A stretch of 13,003 nucleotides of DNA from Chlamydiales bacterium (GTDB taxonomy: Bacteria > Chlamydiota > Chlamydiia > Chlamydiales > JBDQID01), in contig JBLFWS010000096.1 of assembly GCA_047611865.1 (NCBI GenBank), positions 1 through 13,003 of the forward strand, written 5' to 3'. Both the position numbers and the translations under genes were made by a program. The notes under the pieces were generated by a model. That model saw only the letters and a program-made list of their open reading frames with translations, was not told the origin of the DNA and did not search any database. Of this stretch, positions 1 through 11,762 are shown piece by piece. The stretch's first letter is position 1; each line of letters opens with the position of its first letter.

Positions 1-622
1 AACGTTCTGCTGCATTTCTTTCACAATCATTTTTTGTAGAACCATCTTCCTTCATGATAGGCTCAGGACATAAAGGAATGACTTCTTTATAGTCGGGGTG
101 AGCAATGACTGATCCGAGCATTTGATGATGAAAAGTAATAGAGTCATCCTTTTTATGATGCTTTTCACAGCAGTTGTTACAGTGCACTTTTTTAGAAGAA
201 AAGTAGCCAGTTCCATCGTTAAGCATTAAATATTTACCATCTAAAAAAGCGAACTTTTCCAGCTCTTTACCTCTTTGTAAAGCCGAAAAAATTGATGTGA
301 AAGCAGGACGAAGGTCCTTTGGATTTATTTCATCGAGCCTTTCTCTCATATAGGTATCACAGGGCACCTTCTCTAACCCAAAAAGATTTTTCAGGTTTAG
401 TTTAATGGGACCTTCAATTTTATTTTCTTCAAACTGAAGTAAGGAAGGGAATTTTAGTTTAAAAATAGCAAGAGCAGACATGAGGCAGTCTGAAATACTG
501 ATCTTTTTTTCCAGTCCTTGCCTTCCTCTTGGAGGTTCTTTTACTTTCTTGAAAATGTTTCGTGCTTTTCTAAGCAATCCTTTAGAGGAAAGATTTACTT
601 TCTCAATTAGTCTTGTAGCCAT
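1..622 (-). CDS. DDE transposase, ISNCY-like (N-terminal 207 aa; runs off the left edge)
   Basis: Not in the ORF track because it is open at the edge. Manual minus-strand translation from ATG 622 gives MATRLIEKVNLSSKGLLRKARNIF...DCLMSALAIFKLKFPSLLQFE...NLKNLFGLEKVPCDTYMRERLD...YLMLNDGTGYFSSKKVHCNNC...HQMLGSVIAHP...PLCPEPIMKEDGSTKNDCERNAAER. The DGTGYFSS..HCxxC and KNDCERNAA motifs are typical of this transposase type. Confidence 0.88.
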   Translation of the reverse strand, partial: MATRLIEKVNLSSKGLLRKARNIFKKVKEPPRGRQGLEKKISISDCLMSALAIFKLKFPSLLQFEENKIEGPIKLNLKNLFGLEKVPCDTYMRERLDEINPKDLRPAFTSIFSALQRGKELEKFAFLDGKYLMLNDGTGYFSSKKVHCNNCCEKHHKKDDSITFHHQMLGSVIAHPDYKEVIPLCPEPIMKEDGSTKNDCERNAAER

Positions 623-1195: not shown

Positions 1196-1978
1196 GTGAT
1201 TAAAATGGAAATAAAGGCAATCAACCTCATAATAATCGAACCTTCTTTCGAACCTTCTTTAGCTTTAGACCCCTCAAAAAAGGCCCCTAAAGAATCCCTC
1301 TCCCCCTCCCTCGCAGCTCAAAATCGCCGAGTCCGAATAGCTAATTCCCCTGCCCAGATCACCATCATTGAGATGGAAAGAGACGAAATCATTGAAAAGA
1401 AGAAATCCCCAGATGATTTCCGCGAGAGAGTCAAGAAAAACCCCGAAACACCTCTTATGCACCACACTGGTCCCTCTGAAAGTACAAACTCCAAACATAT
1501 CCAGTTCAACTCCATCGAAGCCACGATCTTCCACAATAAGTCCAAAGTCTTTGCTGACCAAAAAACCACTGAAAAATGGGGAAAACTACATGGGAACATG
1601 CAAAGCCTTCTCTGGAAACCACTGGAAAATCTAAGTGCCAGACAACGCGTAAACTTCTACAATAGCATTAAAGCTTGCATCAAGGATCATGATGATGACA
1701 TTGATGTCGCTTACAAAACCGTATTCCGCTATCAGGACAAAAAAGATATGCCTTCCAAAATGAAAGCATCCCAGGCCTGCAAAAGAATTATCTCCGCAGA
1801 AGAGGACGTAAAGCTCCTAGAGGGAAAAGCTAAAGAAGTAAAAAACACTTTCGGCCTCTTCGCAAAAGCCCTAAGAAAAATGGATAAGACCCTCAAGCGC
1901 AAGAATATCCAGACGCCTCCTCCCCTCCTGCCTATACATATTTTTTCTTTTTCAAGCGTCAGCACACCTGATTCCTGA
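1196..1978 (+). CDS. Hypothetical protein (about 257-260 aa; low-complexity Pro/Ser N-terminus, helical Lys-rich C-terminal half)
   Basis: Long ORF preceded by a good promoter. The start may be GTG 1196 or ATG 1205. No family motif recognised. Confidence 0.7.
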   Translation: MIKMEIKAINLIIIEPSFEPSLALDPSKKAPKESLSPSLAAQNRRVRIANSPAQITIIEMERDEIIEKKKSPDDFRERVKKNPETPLMHHTGPSESTNSKHIQFNSIEATIFHNKSKVFADQKTTEKWGKLHGNMQSLLWKPLENLSARQRVNFYNSIKACIKDHDDDIDVAYKTVFRYQDKKDMPSKMKASQACKRIISAEEDVKLLEGKAKEVKNTFGLFAKALRKMDKTLKRKNIQTPPPLLPIHIFSFSSVSTPDS

Positions 1979-2117: not shown

Positions 2118-2951
2118 ATGTGCCGGTTTTCCGCTTTGCTAAGTAAAAGCCCTGTTCCCCTTCAGATTCTCCTTAACGACCCGACAAACTCCCTTGTCAG
2201 CCAGAGTTATTGCGCACAAGAGAGCACTTCCGGAATCAATGCCGATGGCTTTGGTCTAGGCTGGTACAACCACGAATTATCTCCAAACCCCGGGGTTTTC
2301 AAATCGATCCTTCCCGCCTGGAACGATGAAAACCTTTTAAGCCTCACTTCAAAGATCTCTTCTCACTGCTTTATCGGTCACGTCCGAGCTAGCACTGTTG
2401 GTAATGTCAACTACGCCAATTGCCACCCTTATTCCCATAATCACTTCCTCTTCGCTCACAACGGTACCATCGAAAACTTCGATGCCATCAAGAGACCTCT
2501 AATCCAAATGCTCCCTGATGAATTGCTGAAGAATATAAAAGGGCAAACAGACTCCGAATACTTCTTTGCCCTCATATGCAAATTCTTAGCAAAAGACAGC
2601 TCACTCAAAGAAGCAAAAGAAGCTATAAACCAAGCCATAGGCACCGTAAATTCTTTACAGCGTGAAAATAAGATCGAAGTATGCTCCCTCTTAAACCTGG
2701 TTTTTACAAATGGCCACTACCTTATCGCGACAAAATATTCTTCCAAAATTGATGACAAAGACCTCTCTCTCTACTACAGGGAAAATATCTGTCAAAGTAA
2801 TAATGCTAACGCAGAACTATGCTCCATAACAGTTTCCTCCGAAATGCTGGACGACGACGGCCCTGAAAACTGGATCGAAGTACCCTCAAACCACATGATC
2901 TGGGCAGATAATACAATGCTTGTACACTCAGAAGAGATTACTAAGGGGTGA
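2118..2951 (+). CDS. Class II glutamine amidotransferase / Ntn hydrolase, EgtC/Dug3-like
   Basis: N-terminal MCR (Cys2 nucleophile), NADGFGLGWY, PAWNDENL, HVRAST, NCHPY, FAHNG, GQTDSE and VSSE motifs. Confidence 0.92.
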   Translation: MCRFSALLSKSPVPLQILLNDPTNSLVSQSYCAQESTSGINADGFGLGWYNHELSPNPGVFKSILPAWNDENLLSLTSKISSHCFIGHVRASTVGNVNYANCHPYSHNHFLFAHNGTIENFDAIKRPLIQMLPDELLKNIKGQTDSEYFFALICKFLAKDSSLKEAKEAINQAIGTVNSLQRENKIEVCSLLNLVFTNGHYLIATKYSSKIDDKDLSLYYRENICQSNNANAELCSITVSSEMLDDDGPENWIEVPSNHMIWADNTMLVHSEEITKG

Positions 2952-2957
2952 CCATCT

Positions 2958-3824
2958 ATGGCAGATTTCGAGCAGCCTTTCACTCCTGTTTTTGATAGAG
3001 AGAGACTTAAACTTAATCCTGCTTCTGAAATGGATATTCAACCGATAGAGCTCGGAGACAACAAATATCCTGCCATCCTGGTAGATAACTTTTATCGAGA
3101 TCCAGACTACATCAGAGAGATTGCCTTAAACTCATACTATCGCCCTGACCCGCGTACAGCTTATCCAGGTACTGTTTCATCGATTTCATTGGGAGCTTAC
3201 GATATATGCGACTTCCTTTATCCGAAATTGGGCTTCGAATATGCCTACTCACAAAAAAGCTTCAGAGAAAGTTCTGGAAATTACTGGAAGTTTTCCCTCG
3301 TAGGTTCAGGAGTAAATGATCCAAAGCTACAGATCGAACACACGGACCCTAATTTATTACAGGGTCTGGTATTTCTCAATCCACCAGAGCTCTGTAAAGG
3401 GGGAACGGTATTTTTTAAGCACAAGGATTATGAAATAGAGGAAATCGTAAATAATGAAGAAGTATCATTCCTTGCTCTGAATAAATTAGGCTCCCTTACT
3501 CATGCTGGAGCAAACAAGACAGTGGATTCAAAAGCGTTGGATTATGCAATCGGAAAAGGAGTATTTTCCCAATATTTGAACTTACAAAAGGGAGGGATAT
3601 TGAATAGCTACTTTGACTTAATGAAAATAGTTACAATGGAATACGCTCCAACATTGGGTCATTGGGAAGAAACAAAAATCATTGAGATGAAATATAATCG
3701 ACTCATTTGCTTTCCTGGCTTTCTTGTCCATGCCTTGCGCTGCGAGTCCGCTTGGTTCGGTGACAGCTTGGAAAAGCGAAGACTTACCCAAAATTTCAAT
3801 TTTGGATGGCCACTTTTAACTTAG
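2958..3824 (+). CDS. DUF6445-like 2OG-Fe(II) oxygenase (intact HxD...H...R)
   Basis: LVDNFYRDPD, YPG, HTD (3339-3347), FLNPPE..KGGTVFFKH, YNRLICFPGFLVH and RLTQNF. Starts 6 bp after the previous stop. Confidence 0.8.
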   Translation: MADFEQPFTPVFDRERLKLNPASEMDIQPIELGDNKYPAILVDNFYRDPDYIREIALNSYYRPDPRTAYPGTVSSISLGAYDICDFLYPKLGFEYAYSQKSFRESSGNYWKFSLVGSGVNDPKLQIEHTDPNLLQGLVFLNPPELCKGGTVFFKHKDYEIEEIVNNEEVSFLALNKLGSLTHAGANKTVDSKALDYAIGKGVFSQYLNLQKGGILNSYFDLMKIVTMEYAPTLGHWEETKIIEMKYNRLICFPGFLVHALRCESAWFGDSLEKRRLTQNFNFGWPLLT

Positions 3825-3868
3825 GTCGTGTCACTTAACTAAAAAAACCAAAAAAGGAACCTCTCATT

Positions 3869-4729
3869 TTGTCTATCGATTGGAAAAAGCTAGAGATAAA
3901 CCCCAGTGATATGATGGAAATTCATCATGCTACTGTTGGGAAACAATCTTATCCTTTCCTTGTAGTAGATAATTTTTATCAAGATCCCGCATATCTGCGA
4001 AACCTTGCTCTCAGTCTCGACTATTGTAGGAATTATAGGGATCCTATTTGTAGCCTTCTGGCCTTGGGACCTCTTGGCAGCAAAAAGATTGCTCGAATAA
4101 GTACTGACCAATCCCCCCTCTGTAAGTTTTTACATGAACATTTGGCTCATCATTTTATTTCCAGCCTCGAACACATGACCGTTTCTTTGGATTCACTAAG
4201 CGTATTTTCCATGGTAATGAACGCTAAAGGAGAGGCCGATTATGATTTTAAATTTCCAAAAGGAGGAGACCTTTTTCTTAAAGGATCTATCTTCTTAAAC
4301 CCTCCAGAACAATGTAAAGGAGGAATAGGATTTTATCGCCATAAGGAAACAGGATTGGAAGAATATGTTCCCTTTTACTTATTGGGAAAACAAGCAACTG
4401 GAAAGTCCCTTGCTTACAAGGAAATAGTTACGGCCGTCAAAGATCTGGGCTTGTATGAGAATTTCCATGACTTACAGGAGAAAGGAATTCTTAAAAAATA
4501 CGAAGACTGCTGGAAAATTTTAACGGCATCTTGCCTGGGTGCCACAAAAAACATAGCTGGAGGCAATGATATCTGGGAGCTAATTCACTTTGTGGAAATG
4601 AAATACAACCGGCTTGTCCTTTTCCCAGGTTTCCTCTTGAATGTGGAGCATTATCAAGAAGAGTGGTTTCCCGAATCGCTGGAGTCGAGAAAAGTCATGC
4701 AAGAAATTATGATTCCCTGGCCGACATAA
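3869..4729 (+). CDS. DUF6445-like 2OG-Fe(II) oxygenase paralog with degenerate metal ligands
   Basis: Colinear with the previous gene (VVDNFYQDP, FLNPPEQCKGG, EMKYNRLVLFPGFL, WF..SLE.R, WP). HTD is replaced by KGG and the distal H by N. TTG start preceded by AAGGA. Confidence 0.78.
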   Translation: MSIDWKKLEINPSDMMEIHHATVGKQSYPFLVVDNFYQDPAYLRNLALSLDYCRNYRDPICSLLALGPLGSKKIARISTDQSPLCKFLHEHLAHHFISSLEHMTVSLDSLSVFSMVMNAKGEADYDFKFPKGGDLFLKGSIFLNPPEQCKGGIGFYRHKETGLEEYVPFYLLGKQATGKSLAYKEIVTAVKDLGLYENFHDLQEKGILKKYEDCWKILTASCLGATKNIAGGNDIWELIHFVEMKYNRLVLFPGFLLNVEHYQEEWFPESLESRKVMQEIMIPWPT

Positions 4730-4767
4730 TTGTGCTGACAAAGCAGCAAACGAAGCCTTACCCTTGT

Positions 4768-7248
4768 TTAAACACAAGTCCTTTTCCCCAATAGTCGTAA
4801 AATCTCAGATAGATTCCTGCAAGTGAACCTTACCTTTAACCACTGATGATACAGCATCAAACCACCTTTGGAAATATTCTCTTCACAAATTTCTAAGAGG
4901 CTTTCCCAGGCTGCTTCTGGCATATCCAAATGATTATGACTACGTACAGAATCTACTTGAAGAATGCCATATAAGTTGACAGTCTCCTTTGAAGTGCTTG
5001 AAGATATTTCTCCCTGAAAAGCTGGTAAAAGAGTAATGGGGTCTATGAAAAACAGCATCTTGCCTAAATCACCATCCCGAGTTTTCCAATCCAGTACTGC
5101 GTTCAAAAAAGTAAACTCTTCGACCTCTTGATCCCCGTATAATACTCGGTCTTCATCAATAGTAAACGTCTCAGTAGGGTTTATATCTGTACTAAGATGG
5201 ACAATAACATAAGTGCCATAGAAAGCTTCTGCGAAAGAGGGGGAACTGCTACCCCTGATTTTTCTCCCAGAAAACTCTAACGCTCCAACGGAACCCTTAC
5301 TAGGTGAAAAAGAAATGGAGTGCTTCCCCCACATCAATTTTCCATCCCTGTAACGATAGCGGTCAACAGCTTCATCATTAATAAAAAAACCACATTCTCT
5401 TTGCCCATCTTCCTGAATAAAAGGGGTGATCGTAATCTGAGGACCCTTTGACCAGGTTTTTGTGTCTTCGCTAATTTCGCTACTATACCGCCCTGTCCAC
5501 ATACTTAAAGGTATCCCGTTCGGAGGGGTCTCAATAGCCGTGAAAGGACTTTCATCCTCTTCCTCTTGCCCATCTTCCCAAATAACCCCCTTCATCTTTC
5601 GGAGATTTTGCCCATCTTCACTTCCTGGCATCTCAAACTCTAGCTTGCCATTGTGAGGGTTCCCCTCCGATGCAGACCAGGAAAGCACAGAATGATAAAA
5701 GCTTCCTTTCACAAGTCGTTTAGAGTTCACATAGACAAAGCTATTCTGTGAAAGAGAAGGATTCCCGAATACCACGACAACGACACTTTTTTCCTGACAG
5801 TAATATGTCCCTGTCCAGGGGAGTAGAGATGTACTAAGAACATTCTCCGCTGCCACTTCAAAACTCTCCCATCGAACTCTTATTTTATGGGATAAAGACC
5901 ATTCAGATAAGGAATCTTCTAAATGCCTATTTTCAATCCCTCTTTCCACGACTTCTCGAAACTCTCTTGAAAGATTTTGATCTACCAGGAGTTGGCTAAT
6001 AAGTTCTTCTGTGGGAGAGGTTTTACTTCTTTCCCCTCTGACAGCACCACTTATACGTCGTTCATCAAAGCTGAGAAGAATCGACCTGTCTTCTTCGCTG
6101 ATTCCGGGAAAGTTTTTTTCACTAAGGATTTCTTCAGAATCCTGAAGATATCTCCTTTGTAATTCTTCATCTTGACTTAAGTGAAAAAGAAATTCCCCAA
6201 TTTTTGTTTTTTCCTGGAAATGATAGTCAGCAGGTACGACATATTCTTGTAACTCACTAATTGCTTCGAGTTCCATCGGCCCATAATCAGCCAAACTTCT
6301 GATTGGACTTTCTTCTATAAGCGCTTGCCCCTCACTTGCACACCCGAAAAGCACAGCCATATCCATATCCAAAAATACCGCGTCCCTGGGTGGAACATGA
6401 AAAGTCGATATCCCTGTTATTTGACTCTGAATCTTAGAATCAAAAAGTTCACTGAGTTTATACTTCGTTATCACCGGAGGAAAACTTGGATACCTGGAAC
6501 CTATATAGTGGACAATTTCAAAATCCTTTCCATAATACTTCTGGAGGTATTCAACAAAAATATTAAAGTGCTTATTGACAAAACCCTTTCTACGATACCC
6601 CGTATCTCCTATAGCTCCCACTTGCCATAATATCAAATGCATGGTCGTGTCAGGTCGAGTTGCCCTCAAAAGCATATGCGTGGCTTCGTAGGACTGCATT
6701 CCCGGAAAAGCAGGATCTAGGCCAAGATCTGCACATAAGGTATCCAAAGCCGATACCCCGGCTTTCATAACAGCAGGGTACCCTTCACGCTTGGCTATTT
6801 CTATAGCCCGATGTGAAGGAACAACGAAAATTCCGGGATGTCCGTAAAAGACCGCTACAACGTTTTTACCCTCTCGAACATAATATAACATAGCTTCAGA
6901 CATTTGAGCATAGGTGCGATGTCGCGGCTTTCCATCCTCATATAAAACGTACAGATCATAAGCGTCAGGCCTAAGGCTACGAATCCACATTGTCGTCACA
7001 GAATCGGAAGCATAGAAGAATACCTTATCTGCTTTTTCAATCTTATTCACAGCCTCCAATGTAAAACCCATGCATTCTATACCTGTACCTACAATGCTTA
7101 GGGAGCCTCGGCTTTTTATTTTTTCTCCAAGTTCCGATTCGCTGTCAAGGGATGCTCTTTGTTCCACAATATTTTGTGCAAGGGATTCCCATGCATCCTT
7201 ACATTCCTCACTAGTGGGATAGCTCTCGCCTAGAGTCAAATTAATCAT
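4768..7248 (-). CDS. Borosin-family peptide alpha-N-methyltransferase fused to a clasp/BBD-like region and three C-terminal repeats (about 826 aa)
   Basis: GSLSIVGTGI, ADKVFF, DLYVLYEDGKPRHRTYAQMSE, VFYGHPGIFVVPSHRAI, GVSALDTLCADLGLDP, YEAT, HLILWQVGAIG, STFHVPP and YGPMELEAI..L...VP..Y all parallel the OphMA methyltransferase and clasp. ATG 7248 is preferred over TTG 7308. Confidence 0.9.
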   Translation of the reverse strand: MINLTLGESYPTSEECKDAWESLAQNIVEQRASLDSESELGEKIKSRGSLSIVGTGIECMGFTLEAVNKIEKADKVFFYASDSVTTMWIRSLRPDAYDLYVLYEDGKPRHRTYAQMSEAMLYYVREGKNVVAVFYGHPGIFVVPSHRAIEIAKREGYPAVMKAGVSALDTLCADLGLDPAFPGMQSYEATHMLLRATRPDTTMHLILWQVGAIGDTGYRRKGFVNKHFNIFVEYLQKYYGKDFEIVHYIGSRYPSFPPVITKYKLSELFDSKIQSQITGISTFHVPPRDAVFLDMDMAVLFGCASEGQALIEESPIRSLADYGPMELEAISELQEYVVPADYHFQEKTKIGEFLFHLSQDEELQRRYLQDSEEILSEKNFPGISEEDRSILLSFDERRISGAVRGERSKTSPTEELISQLLVDQNLSREFREVVERGIENRHLEDSLSEWSLSHKIRVRWESFEVAAENVLSTSLLPWTGTYYCQEKSVVVVVFGNPSLSQNSFVYVNSKRLVKGSFYHSVLSWSASEGNPHNGKLEFEMPGSEDGQNLRKMKGVIWEDGQEEEDESPFTAIETPPNGIPLSMWTGRYSSEISEDTKTWSKGPQITITPFIQEDGQRECGFFINDEAVDRYRYRDGKLMWGKHSISFSPSKGSVGALEFSGRKIRGSSSPSFAEAFYGTYVIVHLSTDINPTETFTIDEDRVLYGDQEVEEFTFLNAVLDWKTRDGDLGKMLFFIDPITLLPAFQGEISSSTSKETVNLYGILQVDSVRSHNHLDMPEAAWESLLEICEENISKGGLMLYHQWLKVRFTCRNLSEILRLLGKRTCV

Positions 7249-7352
7249 GCCTGCACTTTCGTTACTGAGTACTAAGGTAAAGTTCGATGGACAAACTGCC
7301 ACCCACAAAGTTAAATATTTTTATAGGTCATTTGATTTTTCTGGGAAAGAAA

Positions 7353-8687
7353 TTACTCCATCCCTTTACGTCCTAATCCCCTATAAAGATAGCCCCATTT
7401 CGCCATATCGTCCTCTCTAAGAATATTTCTGGCATCGATAAGCACAGGAGATCTCATCAACTTTTTGACCCTTATCTCGTAATCCATCTCCTTGAATTCC
7501 TCCCACTCTGTCAAGATCAGGATAGCATCGGATCCGTTTACCGCGTCGTAAGCTCCGTCGCAAAAAGTCACCCCTATGAGATCTCCCAAAGCACTCTTTG
7601 CCTTCTTTCCCGCATGGGGATCATAGACTTGTAAAAGCACTCCTTCCTCTGATAGCTCACGAACAATCTCCAAAGCAGAAGAGTTCCTCACATCATCAGA
7701 GTTAGCTTTAAAGGCAAGGCCCAGCACTCCCAGACATTTCCCGGACAGACCCCCCTGAAAAACCTCTCTAAGCTTTTCTACAATCACTCTTCTTTGCATA
7801 GCATTGACTCTCTCAGATGCCTCCACCAACTGTAAAACAGAACCTACAGACCTTGCCTGTGCAAGCAGGGCTGTAGCATCCTTAGGCAAGCACGGTCCCC
7901 CATATCCCGGACCGGGCGTAAAGCCCTGCAAGTTGATCCTACTGTCCATACTCATCCCCTGGATAAGAATATCGATGTCTACTCCCAATTTTTCACAAAG
8001 CCCTGCCATCTCATTAACAAAAGAAATCTTCACCCCAAGAAAAGCATTGGAAGCATATTTGATCAACTCCGCGGTCTCAAATGAAGAAAATAGTACAGCT
8101 ACCCCTTGTTCCTGAAAGTCCTGAAAAAGCACTTCCATCACTTCCCTACTTTCTGCCGACTCACAGCCTACAATGATTCTATCTGGAAGGAAAAACCCTT
8201 TTACCCCCTCACCCTCTTTAGAAAATTCTGGATTCGATACGACATCAAAATCTTGAGACTTCCTTAGCCCCATTCCCTCTAGAATATCAGAAAGCTTCCT
8301 GCATGTTCCAACCGGCACTGTGCTTTTGATAACGACTAAATAATATTTCCCTTTCTCAAAAGACCTTGCCAAATCCTCCGTAACACGAAATACCCCCGAT
8401 GGGTCCGCTCCGCCCCCTTCGAGTGAAGGTGTATTGACACATATAAAAAAAACCTTGGACTTCTCCACCGCTTTCTTTAAATTTGTTGTGAAGTCAATAT
8501 TGCCTTTCTCTAGATTATCTCGATGAATTTCCAGCAATTGGGGCTCATAAATGGATAGTTCTCCTTCTTTCAAGGAAGAAATTTTATCGGCGTCTTTGTC
8601 AACAGCTATTACGTTTTTTCCAAGGGATGCCAGCCCATTGGCCAATACCAAACCCACATACCCACAACCCACAACAGAAACATTCAT
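7353..8687 (-). CDS. ugd: UDP-glucose/GDP-mannose 6-dehydrogenase family (UDP-glucose 6-dehydrogenase-like)
   Basis: MNVSVVGCGYVGL Rossmann motif, IYEP, CVNTP, KSTVPVGT, SNPEF.KEG, KYASNAFL, GPGYGGPCLPKD (catalytic Cys), GLAFKANSDDVR and DARN. ATG 8687 has GAAGGA upstream. Confidence 0.95.
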   Translation of the reverse strand: MNVSVVGCGYVGLVLANGLASLGKNVIAVDKDADKISSLKEGELSIYEPQLLEIHRDNLEKGNIDFTTNLKKAVEKSKVFFICVNTPSLEGGGADPSGVFRVTEDLARSFEKGKYYLVVIKSTVPVGTCRKLSDILEGMGLRKSQDFDVVSNPEFSKEGEGVKGFFLPDRIIVGCESAESREVMEVLFQDFQEQGVAVLFSSFETAELIKYASNAFLGVKISFVNEMAGLCEKLGVDIDILIQGMSMDSRINLQGFTPGPGYGGPCLPKDATALLAQARSVGSVLQLVEASERVNAMQRRVIVEKLREVFQGGLSGKCLGVLGLAFKANSDDVRNSSALEIVRELSEEGVLLQVYDPHAGKKAKSALGDLIGVTFCDGAYDAVNGSDAILILTEWEEFKEMDYEIRVKKLMRSPVLIDARNILREDDMAKWGYLYRGLGRKGME

Positions 8688-8783
8688 ATGGCTTCCTTCA
8701 TATCGCTTAAAACAAAAGACTCTGGACAAAACCTCATTATAGCAAGTATGGTCAAAAATAAATATTTTTATATAAGCCTACTG

Positions 8784-10400
8784 ATGAATACCACTGAAGA
8801 TCATAAAAACCATATTGGGACAGACTGCAGCACCTTTTTCCAGAGGCTACGCAAGGAAAAAGAGATTCGCTTTATCATGGACCACTCAAATAACTACGGA
8901 AATCAAGCTTCCTGCATCCATATAATAAAACGAATTATCTCCTTGATTGACAGCGAAATAGCCGTCAATCTTGTATACACCGGTGGTGAAAAAACGGTAG
9001 AAAAACTAAAACTCTTTCTAAAGGGTTTTTCTTCGCCCTCCGAAACTCTGAGAATAGGCAAATCCACCGTTCACTTCCTCGAATGGAAGGAAGGAAAAGA
9101 TGAGCTCTTTGAAGAAGAATGTCTCTATGGTTTTACTGGAGGTTTCGACTCGTCCAGACAAGATCTGACAAAAGTCCTAAACGTACGCTATTTTCTTCAT
9201 TTGTCTTTACAAGGGTGGCTTGTCCAGGAAAAAATCGACATCAAAGACGGTGAGACTTGCTTTCTCAGCGGGGAAAATGGTATCGACCCCCACCTTATTG
9301 ATCGCGCCTACTATTATGAGAATCCCGAAATCACAGACGATAAATGGATGTGCTACAAAGAACACGGGACAGAAACAGAAAAACAAAGGGTAAGCCAGAC
9401 CCAGTGCCTACTAGACTTCCTTAAAAAAGAAAAATGGGAACTCTGTCCCTCTTTTAGCATTCGCTTAAGAGGAGGGCAAATCAGCATTGAGCCAGAAGAG
9501 ATTCTCACCAACCTCATTGCCAGTGTCCTACACGCTCAAGAAACGAAAGATAAGCCCCTTAATAAAACTGTTATTCTACTTCTCGAACATGAACGCAATA
9601 TGTCCAAGGACTGCCTGAATAAAGTGCAGGAATTCGTAGCAGGGATCCCTTGTATGGAATCCTTTTTCCAGATTATCGAAAGGCAAATGCTGCATGCAAT
9701 CAAAGGCAAATCAAATCCTTCGGGTAATGAAGCCCTGCTTGTAAACGATTTAAAAAGGAGGGTGAAAAGAGTACAGAGCTTCTACAAAAAGCTCCCCGCC
9801 ATCTCGGCCTATCTGGAAACCCTTAGTGACGGGGGAAAACGAGTCCACTATTTGTCTGGTGAAGATATACGCCACAACGAAAACTTAAGAAAAGAACTCC
9901 GTAAGTTCCAAGAAGATCCTCATGCAAGGGTACTACTTTTTTCCCTCTACAACGTACCTCCCGAAATATTTCATTACATATACAGTCAAGCTACTCTCCC
10001 CTCTGTATTCGAAGGTCAGACTACCGCCAGCCAAATTCTCAACATAGGTAAACCTTATTTTCAGTTAAATAGAATGGCTCTCTTTGATGAAGATGAATTA
10101 TTCAAGGCGGTGCGATACCCCACTCAATTTCTACCGGAAAAATACGAGAAAACCGCAAAGGAATGTCGAGAAATCTCCAATCACTTACACAATGCCTTTG
10201 CAGAAGAAGACTACAAAAAAAGTATCCACAAAATCAGTGACTTTACCGTAAAAACTAAAATGCCGAATAGCCACTTTAACGAATACTTTGAGGCTGCAAA
10301 AGGGGTTTATGGAGACCCCCTCAATGATAAGCTTCTCTTGGGATGCATGCACCTGGCAAAAATCTCTGGCCTCACAAATTCAGAGTATAAGGGTTTTTAA
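8784..10400 (+). CDS. Hypothetical protein, possible GT-B-fold glycosyltransferase
   Basis: Long ORF, likely starting at ATG 8784 (alternatives 8748 and 8688). It has an N-terminal strand-loop IRFIMDHSNNYGNQAS and a C-terminal LPSVFEGQTTASQILNIGKPYFQL, resembling the GT-B nucleotide-sugar-binding segment (G..T..E....G.P). The ORF is confident; the function is tentative. Confidence 0.55.
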   Translation: MNTTEDHKNHIGTDCSTFFQRLRKEKEIRFIMDHSNNYGNQASCIHIIKRIISLIDSEIAVNLVYTGGEKTVEKLKLFLKGFSSPSETLRIGKSTVHFLEWKEGKDELFEEECLYGFTGGFDSSRQDLTKVLNVRYFLHLSLQGWLVQEKIDIKDGETCFLSGENGIDPHLIDRAYYYENPEITDDKWMCYKEHGTETEKQRVSQTQCLLDFLKKEKWELCPSFSIRLRGGQISIEPEEILTNLIASVLHAQETKDKPLNKTVILLLEHERNMSKDCLNKVQEFVAGIPCMESFFQIIERQMLHAIKGKSNPSGNEALLVNDLKRRVKRVQSFYKKLPAISAYLETLSDGGKRVHYLSGEDIRHNENLRKELRKFQEDPHARVLLFSLYNVPPEIFHYIYSQATLPSVFEGQTTASQILNIGKPYFQLNRMALFDEDELFKAVRYPTQFLPEKYEKTAKECREISNHLHNAFAEEDYKKSIHKISDFTVKTKMPNSHFNEYFEAAKGVYGDPLNDKLLLGCMHLAKISGLTNSEYKGF

Positions 10401-11762
10401 ATGACATCTGAAAAAAACAAGCGTCTTTTTGAGCTGATAAAGGACAAATTCATCCCCAGCCCCAAAGTAGAAAAATCTTGCTGTCACATCAGAAAAGCCC
10501 TTCTCGAACAATCTTTACTGAATAAACTAAGCTCCGAAAAAGATTACCCCTATCCTATTGAAACAGCCTGTATTATTGCCTCGCACCTCTTTCTAACGGA
10601 ATATGTGTATTACGAAACAAAAAAGGAAAGAGAACAAATCAACGAACTGGAAAAAGTCATCCTGGATTCCCTCACACAAAAACAATGGGATCCCTTGACT
10701 ATCTTTCAAATTGCGGTAATAGCTACATATAAAGAATTGCAGAACTCCACTTTCGCCGAACACATCCCCCTACCCCTTGCTGAAGCACCTCTGGATTTTC
10801 AGGAATTGATACAAAGGCAAATTACCGAACCTACTTTGGAGAAGGCCCTGAAAAAGAAAATCCCTCTCTTAAAAAAAATTGAAAACACTATTTCTCAAAA
10901 ATTCCAAAAACAATATGAGGAAAACCCTTACCACAAATGGATAAGCCTTCCCTCTTTTAAAAAAACACCATTCTCCGACCACATATCTCAATTATTCCCC
11001 TATAAAAAAATTGAAACAAGCTCCGGACCTCTTGATATCTTGATTCCTGGCTGTGGGACAGGGACACAAATCATAGCTATCGCCAATACCTACGAAAACT
11101 GTCGAATACTCGCTTTAGACATTAGCTTAAACGCCCTGGCTTATGCTGCAAGAAAAGTAAAAGAGTATGATCTAAAAAACATCGAAATACTACAAGGGGA
11201 CCTTCTCGATATAGGTTCTTTAGAAAAATCTTTCGATTACATCGAATGCATTGGTGTTATGCATAGCCTCGAAAACCCCCAAAAAGGTCTGGCAGTATTA
11301 GCACAACAACTCAAACCCAAAGGTCTTCTTTACGTAACCCTTTATAGTCAGCACGCTCGACAAGGCGTCATCGCCGCCAAAGATTTCATTAAACAAAATC
11401 ACTTCGCTCCCACTCTGGAAGGAATGAGAGAAGCTCGACAACGCATTCTGTCTCTTGAAGATGGTGATATAATCAAACAAGTCAGTCATTTACCTGACTT
11501 TTATACCACCGGCACTTGCAGGGAGCTCCTCTTCTACGTTCACGAAGAACGAATGACTTTGCCACAAATAGCCAAAATCCCTGAACTACAGGAACTCGAA
11601 TTTATAGGTTTCCCCTCTCTCGACAGAAAAACTGTTGAAGCCTATAAAGCCTCATTTCCGGATGACCCTCTTCTAAATTCATGGGAAAACTGGAAGCAAT
11701 TCGAAGAAAAAAAACCCGGTATTTTTGGCCCTATGTACCATCTCTGCTTCCAGAAAATCTGA
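10401..11762 (+). CDS. Class I SAM-dependent methyltransferase (QYEENPY-type)
   Basis: QYEENPY.KW, ILIPGCGTG (motif I), ALDIS..ALAYA, FDYIECIGVMH, LYS..AR and RELLFYVHE. The ATG directly follows the previous TAA. Confidence 0.88.
   Translation: MTSEKNKRLFELIKDKFIPSPKVEKSCCHIRKALLEQSLLNKLSSEKDYPYPIETACIIASHLFLTEYVYYETKKEREQINELEKVILDSLTQKQWDPLTIFQIAVIATYKELQNSTFAEHIPLPLAEAPLDFQELIQRQITEPTLEKALKKKIPLLKKIENTISQKFQKQYEENPYHKWISLPSFKKTPFSDHISQLFPYKKIETSSGPLDILIPGCGTGTQIIAIANTYENCRILALDISLNALAYAARKVKEYDLKNIEILQGDLLDIGSLEKSFDYIECIGVMHSLENPQKGLAVLAQQLKPKGLLYVTLYSQHARQGVIAAKDFIKQNHFAPTLEGMREARQRILSLEDGDIIKQVSHLPDFYTTGTCRELLFYVHEERMTLPQIAKIPELQELEFIGFPSLDRKTVEAYKASFPDDPLLNSWENWKQFEEKKPGIFGPMYHLCFQKI

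Follow-up and report, generated by a model that had tools for sequence, protein, structure and literature searches.

A Predicted Borosin-Type N-Methyltransferase from a Chlamydia-Like Bacterium with No Canonical Repeat Precursor Found in Its Assembled Genome

Organization of the Gene

Apart from the borosin methyltransferases, which are in demand as biocatalysts, no ribosomal route to backbone N-methylated peptides is known. Here we describe a borosin-family N-methyltransferase (NMT) gene in a 13,003-nucleotide stretch of DNA from a chlamydia-like bacterium (contig JBLFWS010000096.1, assembly GCA_047611865.1; the whole stretch is referred to as the window). The longest open reading frame (ORF) of the window lies on the minus strand at 4768-7308, where a TTG at 7308 opens the longest form. 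The likely start codon is the ATG at 7248-7246, which is residue 21 of the TTG-started translation and gives a protein of 826 amino acids; enzyme residue numbers below are those of the translation from TTG 7308. The gene and the parts of its product are as follows.

4768..7248, minus strand: borosin-family N-methyltransferase gene, 826 amino acids, stop codon 4768-4770 included
7111..7248, minus strand: N-terminal conserved segment, residues 21-66, 'YPTSEE..W.SLA..I' (alignment of 21 homologues)
6349..7110, minus strand: S-adenosylmethionine (SAM)-dependent alpha-N-methyltransferase catalytic domain, residues 67-320, TP_methylase fold (PF00590, SonM and OphMA/dbOphMA matches)
6910..6951, minus strand: catalytic motif Y120-x2-Y123-x5-R129-x3-Y133, equivalent to OphMA Y63, Y66, R72 and Y76 (residue-by-residue alignment)
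6028..6348, minus strand: clasp and helical region resembling a borosin-binding domain (BBD), residues 321-427 (dbOphMA alignment to query residue 424; homodimer model)
5830..6027, minus strand: four-helix linker at the start of the C-terminal region, residues 428-493 (model helices 5-66, pLDDT 90-97)
4951..5829, minus strand: three tandem small beta-barrel-like modules, residues ~494-595, 596-690 and 691-786 (model secondary structure)
4771..4950, minus strand: C-terminal helical pair, residues 787-846, 'AW..L....GGL.LW..W' (alignment; model helices 371-383 and 392-418, pLDDT ~95)

Here and below, pLDDT is the predicted local distance difference test score. The N-terminal segment (residues 21-66) is specific to the family, OphMA being without it.

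Family Assignment and Catalytic Residues

A phmmer search of the PDB matched dbOphMA best (E 9.1e-68, query residues 67-424), followed by OphMA (3.6e-67) and MroMA (8e-63); SonM (7ltc) was also matched strongly (4.7e-41), over residues 68-318 only. The best tetrapyrrole methylase in this search was CbiF, at E 0.22. Pfam returned only the generic PF00590 (TP_methylase, E 4.5e-16), and NCBIfam scores fell far under their cut-offs (33 bits against 525 for YabN; 15.1 bits against 163 for CobI/CbiL). The clasp and the BBD-like helical region align with those of OphMA/dbOphMA. Residue by residue, OphMA Y63, Y66, R72, Y76, Y98, S129 and Q172 align to Y120, Y123, R129, Y133, Y155, S186 and Q229 of the enzyme, the native OphMA number being taken as chain index +1, an offset derived from the catalytic numbering. 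We take the first four of these OphMA residues to be catalytic and Y98 to bind SAM. The catalytic columns are invariant across 21 full-length homologues, and the enzyme retains every catalytic and SAM-binding residue.

A sequence-only reading of this DNA had proposed an intact borosin NMT, rather than a tetrapyrrole methylase, at 6034-7110. Every motif string that it cited occurs in the enzyme translation: LYEDGKPRHRTYAQMSE is residues 122-138, and YGHPGIFVVPSHRAI, WQVG, YGPMELEAISEL...VPADY and FLFHLSQDEELQRRYLQD...ISEEDRSILLS are all present in the minus-strand translation of 4768-7308. Both parts of the proposal are borne out, with OphMA-type proteins at E ~1e-67 against 0.22 for CbiF and with the equivalents of OphMA Y66, R72 and Y76 retained in the Y-x5-R-x3-Y spacing. 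The proposed extent corresponds to residues 67-425, about the stretch that phmmer aligns to dbOphMA (67-424), but it takes in under half of the protein and leaves out ~420 residues that follow and ~45 conserved ones that precede. Because the PDB scores, the cut-off failures and the aligned catalytic residues agree, the borosin motif match is confirmed at the sequence level as far beyond chance, and we infer that the ORF encodes a borosin-type alpha-N-methyltransferase with predicted backbone methylation activity.

The C-Terminal Region

The C-terminal region of ~420 residues was modeled from a 52-row alignment (mean pLDDT 89; predicted template-modeling score, pTM, 0.89). In the predicted model a four-helix linker comes first, followed by three beta modules and a final pair of helices. 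A W/F-x-G-x-Y motif starts every beta module (WTGTY at 498-502, WTGRY at 605-609 and FYGTY at 696-700), and the W/G/Y columns are nearly invariant in the alignment of this region; an alignment of 21 relatives has invariant columns along its whole length, including the W/G/Y and D-P motifs of the C-terminal part. Judged from the model and the alignment, the C-terminal helical pair is structured and conserved, and is not a core-peptide tail. The sole poorly modeled stretch, at about residues 647-697, is a variable loop region with no core-like sequence. No D[V/I] or other repeat run was found within the enzyme; such runs occur in 3 of the 125 proteins scanned, all of them 1173-1219 amino acids long.

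Structural comparison of the model with VIA-align (model positions 67-168 and 259-359) gave Z scores of 8.9 for the Cap15 barrel, 8.2 for a designed barrel and 7.9 for a D-aminopeptidase C-domain, and streptavidin-like proteins were also among the small up-and-down barrel matches. We read these model-based matches only as a fold class, the small up-and-down barrel, and not as homology. Foldseek against the PDB returned GH43 arabinanases and neuraminidases that are meaningless as matches (TM score ≤0.18, root-mean-square deviation 17-23 Å), and the ESM Atlas yielded no usable feature match, its sole related structural row being the same NMT family. When the C-terminal region was searched alone against 1.84 billion representatives, it matched 72 proteins, mostly at residues ~405-830 of proteins of 730-1170 amino acids, and we therefore consider it an appendage specific to this enzyme family. 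The WTGxY motif resembles the WxGTYYCY of the precursor N-domain; a common origin of the two regions was not established by hhalign (probability 12%, E 0.0024).

Relatives and Their Precursor Genes

Of the 8000 candidates that were scored in a search of 5.8 billion proteins, 238 were relatives. Many of these have lengths of 730-860 amino acids and match up to 97% of the query at 33-41% identity, and they are spread over Pseudomonadota, Actinomycetota, Bacillota, Acidobacteriota, Nitrospirota and other phyla; homologues are named 'Tetrapyrrole methylase' or 'SAM-dependent methyltransferase' in their sources. With Type VII/VIII NMTs the homology runs end to end, the N-terminal segment and the C-terminal ~400 residues included, and by sequence the enzyme belongs with PmoM, a Type VIII enzyme, and with the Type VII enzymes in one bacterial borosin family.

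From a scan of one genome per species we collected 80 homologous loci, with flanks of up to 8 kb on each side, and scanned their ORFs for alternating acidic/aliphatic runs. A D[V/I]D[V/I]-repeat gene lies beside the enzyme gene or is fused to it in 69 of the 80, and the loci divide as follows.

Repeat gene directly upstream, mostly ~600 amino acids: 56/80 loci
Repeat gene downstream: 6/80 loci (94-145 amino acids in four, 460-795 in two)
Repeat fused to the enzyme: 2/80 loci
Displaced or overlapping repeat ORF: 5/80 loci
No repeat gene: 11/80 loci

Four of the 11 repeat-less loci have less than 700 nucleotides (nt) of contig upstream, and three have truncated enzyme ORFs. At one locus, from Thermoanaerobaculia (L023), an ORF just downstream of the enzyme gene (10136-10462, plus strand) has the leader motif 'TDLPN' in common with short DVDV precursors. 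The tail is of another kind, 'DYPN...' and then an Asp/Arg/His-rich stretch, perhaps a non-canonical core, perhaps an artefact of the reading frame.

Search for a Precursor

No D[V/I]D[V/I]-repeat precursor was found in the window by a regular-expression search over all ORFs of at least 40 amino acids. The enzyme gene is closely flanked by two others.

7353..8687, minus strand: UDP-glucose 6-dehydrogenase gene, directly upstream of the enzyme gene, ~100-nt gap
3869..4729, plus strand: DUF6445 gene, convergent, ending 38 nt from the enzyme stop

The dehydrogenase gene occupies the place that the precursor gene has in 56 of the 80 homologous loci, and with the DUF6445 gene 38 nt past the stop there is no room for a downstream precursor gene. 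This gene order is not an assembly artefact, because contigs from runs X1 and X2, possibly the source samples, span 3000-9500 without difference and contigs from a third sample, X3, bridge both gene junctions. None of the six runs listed as containing the stretch is an RNA run.

The search covered the whole assembly (3.59 Mb, 272 contigs, 95.5% complete). A six-frame scan returned seven short runs only, the longest of 12 residues; the six that were inspected belong to DnaE, LeuD and other proteins, none of which has a repeat array. The same scan found no partial D[VIT] run at contig ends or elsewhere. Used as tblastn queries against the assembly, 12 long and 4 short precursors and that of a second chlamydial genome, described below, gave a best E of 0.03, and no homologue of the non-repeat domains of the long precursors was detected. 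Looser scans of the assembly for alternating acidic/aliphatic sequence gave no candidate, and a genome scan for the 'DLPN' leader motif common to the short precursors of loci L021, L005 and L023 gave 11 matches, none of them plausible. The canonical precursor was thus not found, and a non-canonical one may still exist. Because no D[V/I]D[V/I]-repeat precursor lies nearby or elsewhere in the assembled genome, we read the enzyme as an orphan.

Another contig of the same genome (C115, ~1-700, frame 3) encodes a highly acidic repeat protein ('EEEEESLEGIDEDLLAGLGEVEAPAEEAVK' repeated) at its end. The repeat is not of the D[V/I] type, and no link to the enzyme was established.

Conservation, Variation and Predicted Dimer

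The conservation test used 164 positions at least 90% conserved in 63 relatives, with rows L015 and L054, which are mis-extracted ORFs, disregarded. The conserved positions kept by the enzyme are given by region.

N-terminal segment: 4/4
NMT domain: 97/115
Clasp/BBD: 18/29
C-terminal region: 14/16

The 826-codon frame is intact. In sample X3, five differences cluster within 58 nt (6990-7047) of the enzyme gene on a contig that is otherwise near-identical, and by codon reading four of the five change the amino acid (residues 88, 92, 103 and 107).

Prediction of residues 60-430 as a homodimer gave an ipSAE of 0.87, against 0.00 for the best of three controls; among proteins of solved structure, 20 of 30 same-chain pairs reach the ipSAE mark, against 1 of 23 single chains. 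Contacts agree to at least 80% between the runs, the partner pLDDT is at least 79, and clasp residues 311-353 touch the partner chain in the model. Because OphMA dimers are solved structures, we treat the predicted dimer as a likeness to them, which it may simply reflect, and not as proof of binding.

Distribution and Gene History

Homologues of the enzyme occur in 2 of 401 genomes of the phylum, the present one and a second of the same order (G243). The latter holds a complete Type VIII-like pair, an 832-residue enzyme directly preceded by a 765-residue precursor with the core TDVDVDTDVDVDVDVDVDV, and its enzyme is 32% identical to the present one. This pair lies on contig C94 (locus L084), the precursor at 2956-5253 and the enzyme at 436-2934, both on the minus strand, and in the precursor the TDVDV core comes after an unusually long block of 'GSISSGSITGT' repeats rich in Ser, Gly and Thr.

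In the trees, the fungal proteins form their own clade with support of 100, from which the present enzyme is excluded. The tree of the NMT domain alone leaves the enzyme in a polytomy on a branch of 0.57, and the tree of NMT, clasp and BBD sets it at the base of a 91-row bacterial group with support of 80, a position in which long-branch effects are possible. The G243 enzyme falls among the 'upstream precursor' enzymes. An approximately unbiased (AU) test does not reject a clade of the two chlamydial enzymes (p 0.44), so one acquisition in the phylum is not told apart from two. The sequence-only reading had described the clasp layout as OphMA-like and closer to fungal OphMA than to the short SonM. 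The layout itself holds, in that clasp and BBD align with OphMA while SonM covers only residues 68-318, but the protein is not a fused precursor of ~400 residues and instead appears to belong, over its full length, with the bacterial Type VII/VIII NMTs; a fungal-like placement is contradicted by the phylogeny.

The gene has a GC content of 42.1%, and of 36.6% at third codon positions (GC3), against genome long-ORF means of 42.5% and 38.7%. These values are typical of the genome, and any transfer would therefore be old. Seven TLC-type nucleotide transporter genes are present in the genome, in keeping with a chlamydia-like organism; Pfam searches of the genome for Chlam_OMP6 and Chlam_PMP returned nothing, or nothing informative. 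No paper pairing borosins with Chlamydi* was found in a literature search whose reach did not extend to subscription journals and supplementary lists.

Gene Neighborhood

The neighbors in the window comprise an EgtC-like amidohydrolase, two DUF6445 genes, a 570-residue protein, a class I methyltransferase and a 2-oxoglutarate (2OG)-Fe(II) oxygenase. Further features of the window are listed here.

2-622, minus strand: truncated transposase-like ORF at the contig end, its N-terminus recurring on contigs C18, C179 and C123
694-888, minus strand: 64-residue PD-(D/E)XK (PDDEXK_3) fragment
1196-1978, plus strand: 260-residue protein, no Pfam or NCBIfam match
2118-2951, plus strand: EgtC-like protein of the class II glutamine-amidotransferase fold, TIGR03442 at 195.7 bits, just under the cut-off of 218.65
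8688-10400, plus strand: 570-residue protein, no Pfam, NCBIfam or PDB sequence match, one paralogue in the genome

The transposase-like ORF and the PDDEXK_3 fragment are signs of mobile-element debris near the cluster. EgtC belongs to ergothioneine synthesis, and no EgtB/EgtD-like neighbors were found in the window. The gene for the 570-residue protein abuts that of the class I methyltransferase (10400/10401). A tblastn search of nine window neighbors against the 80 homologous loci gave nothing meaningful; since no neighbor recurs at other loci, the flanking genes do not belong to any conserved borosin cluster. An Rfam scan of the window gave no match, and a promoter and terminator scan stayed at shuffle level.

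The DUF6445 genes and the 570-residue protein have paralogues on contig C37 of the same genome. That contig (~1-23617; loci L085 and L086) carries an island rich in candidate protein-modifying enzymes, with six DUF6445, three JmjC-domain and two DUF4915 genes, an NAD epimerase, and an HTTM/vitamin-K-carboxylase (gamma-carboxylase)-like gene. The paralogue of the 570-residue window protein (36% identity) is encoded there too.

Interpretation and Alternatives

We consider it probable that the gene encodes an intact, horizontally acquired backbone NMT of the PmoM/AinM kind that is without its canonical substrate and that, if active, acts on something else in trans. The enzyme would form an interlocked homodimer, as OphMA does, and would move methyl groups from SAM to the backbone amides of a peptide threaded into the active site of the partner. 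Horizontal transfer into a chlamydia-like lineage, long ago, is the most likely origin of the gene, which would since have been kept under selection, the enzyme acting in trans on a substrate that would not be of the canonical repeat type.

Several observations weigh against this interpretation. With 95.5% completeness and 272 contigs, a distal precursor gene could be unassembled. The long branch (0.57-0.85) could mean relaxed constraint, and the enzyme is the most divergent valid member of the family, keeping 133 of the 164 conserved positions (81%) against a family median of 98.7%, where the next lowest valid members keep 89-92%. Part of this divergence is common to its nearest in the ranking, L023 (89%) and L021 (91%), a subgroup that is under-represented in the conservation alignment. 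Finally, Tyr99 replaces a near-invariant Cys that would align to KchMA C49, if KchMA numbers run +7 to those of OphMA, as the KchMA paper implies; a KchMA C49A mutant is reported there to have lost most activity (PMC11395268).

The first of these points is the basis for an alternative in which the enzyme belongs to an ordinary Type VII/VIII split borosin, with its repeat precursor encoded elsewhere, in an unassembled part of the genome. Repeat DNA of that kind assembles poorly, and Lee et al. name distally encoded precursors as one explanation for the 733 mined NMTs without an identified precursor (bioRxiv 10.1101/2024.01.09.574750). However, the repeat gene lies within the fetched flanks in 69 of 80 relatives, whereas the flanks here are filled by other genes, the junctions are confirmed in a third sample, and the assembly holds no partial runs or precursor-domain homologues. 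We regard this explanation as unlikely, if worth keeping in view.

The remaining points bear on the notion that the enzyme is an evolutionary relic, which stayed behind when its precursor was lost and now drifts, its function all or mostly gone. The long branch and the loss of conserved positions are consistent with drift, as are the Cys-to-Tyr change near the substrate and the amino-acid-changing differences clustered in X3 (four of five). Against this, the frame of 826 codons remains open, every catalytic and SAM-binding residue and 14 of 16 conserved C-terminal positions are kept, and the C-terminal region still folds confidently in the model (pLDDT 89). The host-like base composition implies long residence, over which an unselected frame would have broken. 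A relic is, in our judgment, rather improbable.

It is similarly doubtful that the enzyme was re-tasked, within a protein-modifying island of an obligate intracellular chlamydia-like bacterium, to the backbone amides of a bacterial or host protein (the host being an amoeba or other eukaryote) or of a non-repeat peptide. As part of the same joint, and equally doubtful, proposal, the Cys-to-Tyr99 change and the other substrate-proximal changes would represent new specificity and not decay. The enzyme sits among candidate protein-modifying enzymes, which keeps this proposal open; the two DUF6445 proteins, the 2OG-Fe(II) oxygenase, the class I methyltransferase and the EgtC-like amidohydrolase would make up the rest of the island. 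Were it true, this would be the first backbone N-methyltransferase to act outside the biosynthesis of RiPPs (ribosomally synthesized peptides that carry post-translational modifications).

Very little weight falls on an autocatalytic fused borosin, like OphMA or the Type III enzyme KchMA, that methylates a core in its own chain. The sequence is closer to OphMA than to SonM, and KchMA is reported to self-methylate residues 742-796 (PMC11395268). The C-terminus of the present enzyme is nevertheless a conserved, confidently modeled helical pair, neither hypervariable nor repetitive; the protein contains no repeat run, its poorly modeled loop at ~647-697 is without core-like sequence, and selected bacterial NMTs expressed alone showed no self-methylation, as Imani et al. 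report (bioRxiv 10.1101/2021.12.24.474128). The conserved, folded C-terminus and the failure of those published bacterial NMTs to methylate themselves both disfavor self-methylation. A tetrapyrrole (corrin/porphyrin) methylase or YabN/MazG-type enzyme, as the lone PF00590 match and the names of the homologues might suggest, can be dismissed given CbiF at E 0.22 against 1e-67 for borosin NMTs, YabN and CobI scores below cut-offs, and the presence of the borosin-specific Tyr/Arg/Tyr set, clasp and BBD together.

The gene itself is not a discovery, because the family and its large bacterial forms are published and hundreds of precursor-less enzymes are on record. What is new is an intact Type VII/VIII-like enzyme that lost, or never had, its canonical repeat substrate, with the chlamydial G243 pair available for comparison; a confident model of the family's C-terminal region as three beta-barrel modules, where the original authors' models were of low confidence; and a natural Cys-to-Tyr variant at a substrate-proximal position. 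Returning to the interpretation that we favor, of an intact enzyme acting in trans on another substrate, activity on a new kind of substrate would widen the known scope of enzymatic backbone N-methylation. The interest of the locus goes beyond a motif match and lies in the combination of an intact enzyme, the missing canonical precursor, the rare chlamydia-like occurrence and the triple-barrel C-terminal model.

Comparison with Known Systems

Borosins are classified into types 0-XI (PMC11395268). Types VI-VIII are described there as large NMTs with their own BBD and with adjacent precursors that carry TEVX or D[V/I]D[V/I] repeats (PMC11395268; bioRxiv 10.1101/2021.12.24.474128). Co-expression showed repeat methylation for two pairs, PmoA/PmoM (Type VIII, Pseudomonas mosselii) and AinA/AinM (Type VII), and Imani et al. 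report no function found for the extra domains of the large NMTs (bioRxiv 10.1101/2021.12.24.474128).

The present enzyme shares with PmoM the N-terminal segment, the NMT, the clasp/BBD and the C-terminal region of ~400 residues. This comparison was made with the NMT of a P. mosselii strain (L069, 806 amino acids) and not with the published protein itself; identity is 39% over 557 residues (E 1e-129), with the C-terminal helices matched in addition. The systems differ in that a precursor of ~600 residues with a central D[V/I]D[V/I] core lies directly upstream of PmoM (a 651-residue repeat ORF in L069), whereas the present locus has UDP-glucose dehydrogenase in its place. Likeness to the Type VII system, AinM/AinA of Achromobacter insuavis, is also evident, and short-precursor loci give the best full-length matches by score. 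The Arenicella NMT (L021, 836 amino acids) is 39% identical over 835 residues, the best end-to-end match among the loci, and the Pseudoalteromonas rubra NMT (L005) is 39% identical over 86% of the query. PruM, which is named in PMC11395268, may by its name be the P. rubra enzyme. Both loci differ from the present one in having a precursor of 94-145 residues with DVDV/DIDI runs just downstream, where a convergent DUF6445 gene lies here.

KchMA (bacterial Type III fused, WP_084224105.1) is likewise a long bacterial NMT and is reported to group with RceM, AinM, PruM and PmoM (PMC11395268). Its tested residues (Y73, R79, Y83, Y105, S136 and Q179) would map to residues kept here. Unlike KchMA, which by that source methylates its own core at residues 742-796 (PMC11395268), the present enzyme has no core-like stretch. 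SonM (Type IV split, Shewanella oneidensis, PDB 7ltc) shares the catalytic domain (query 68-318); it is ~260 residues long and without its own clasp/BBD, the BBD being on the precursor SonA, whereas the present enzyme has a BBD-like region in cis and a large C-terminal region. The fungal Type I enzymes OphMA/dbOphMA (PDB 5n0o, 6mjf, 6mjg) are similar over residues 67-424 in catalytic domain, residues, clasp and helical region; they are ~400 residues long and end in their own core peptide, at the point where the present enzyme has its 420-residue folded region. The in-chain core of the fused autocatalytic borosins as a whole (Types I-III: OphMA, AboMA, KchMA) was not found in the present enzyme, which has in common with them the predicted clasp homodimer.

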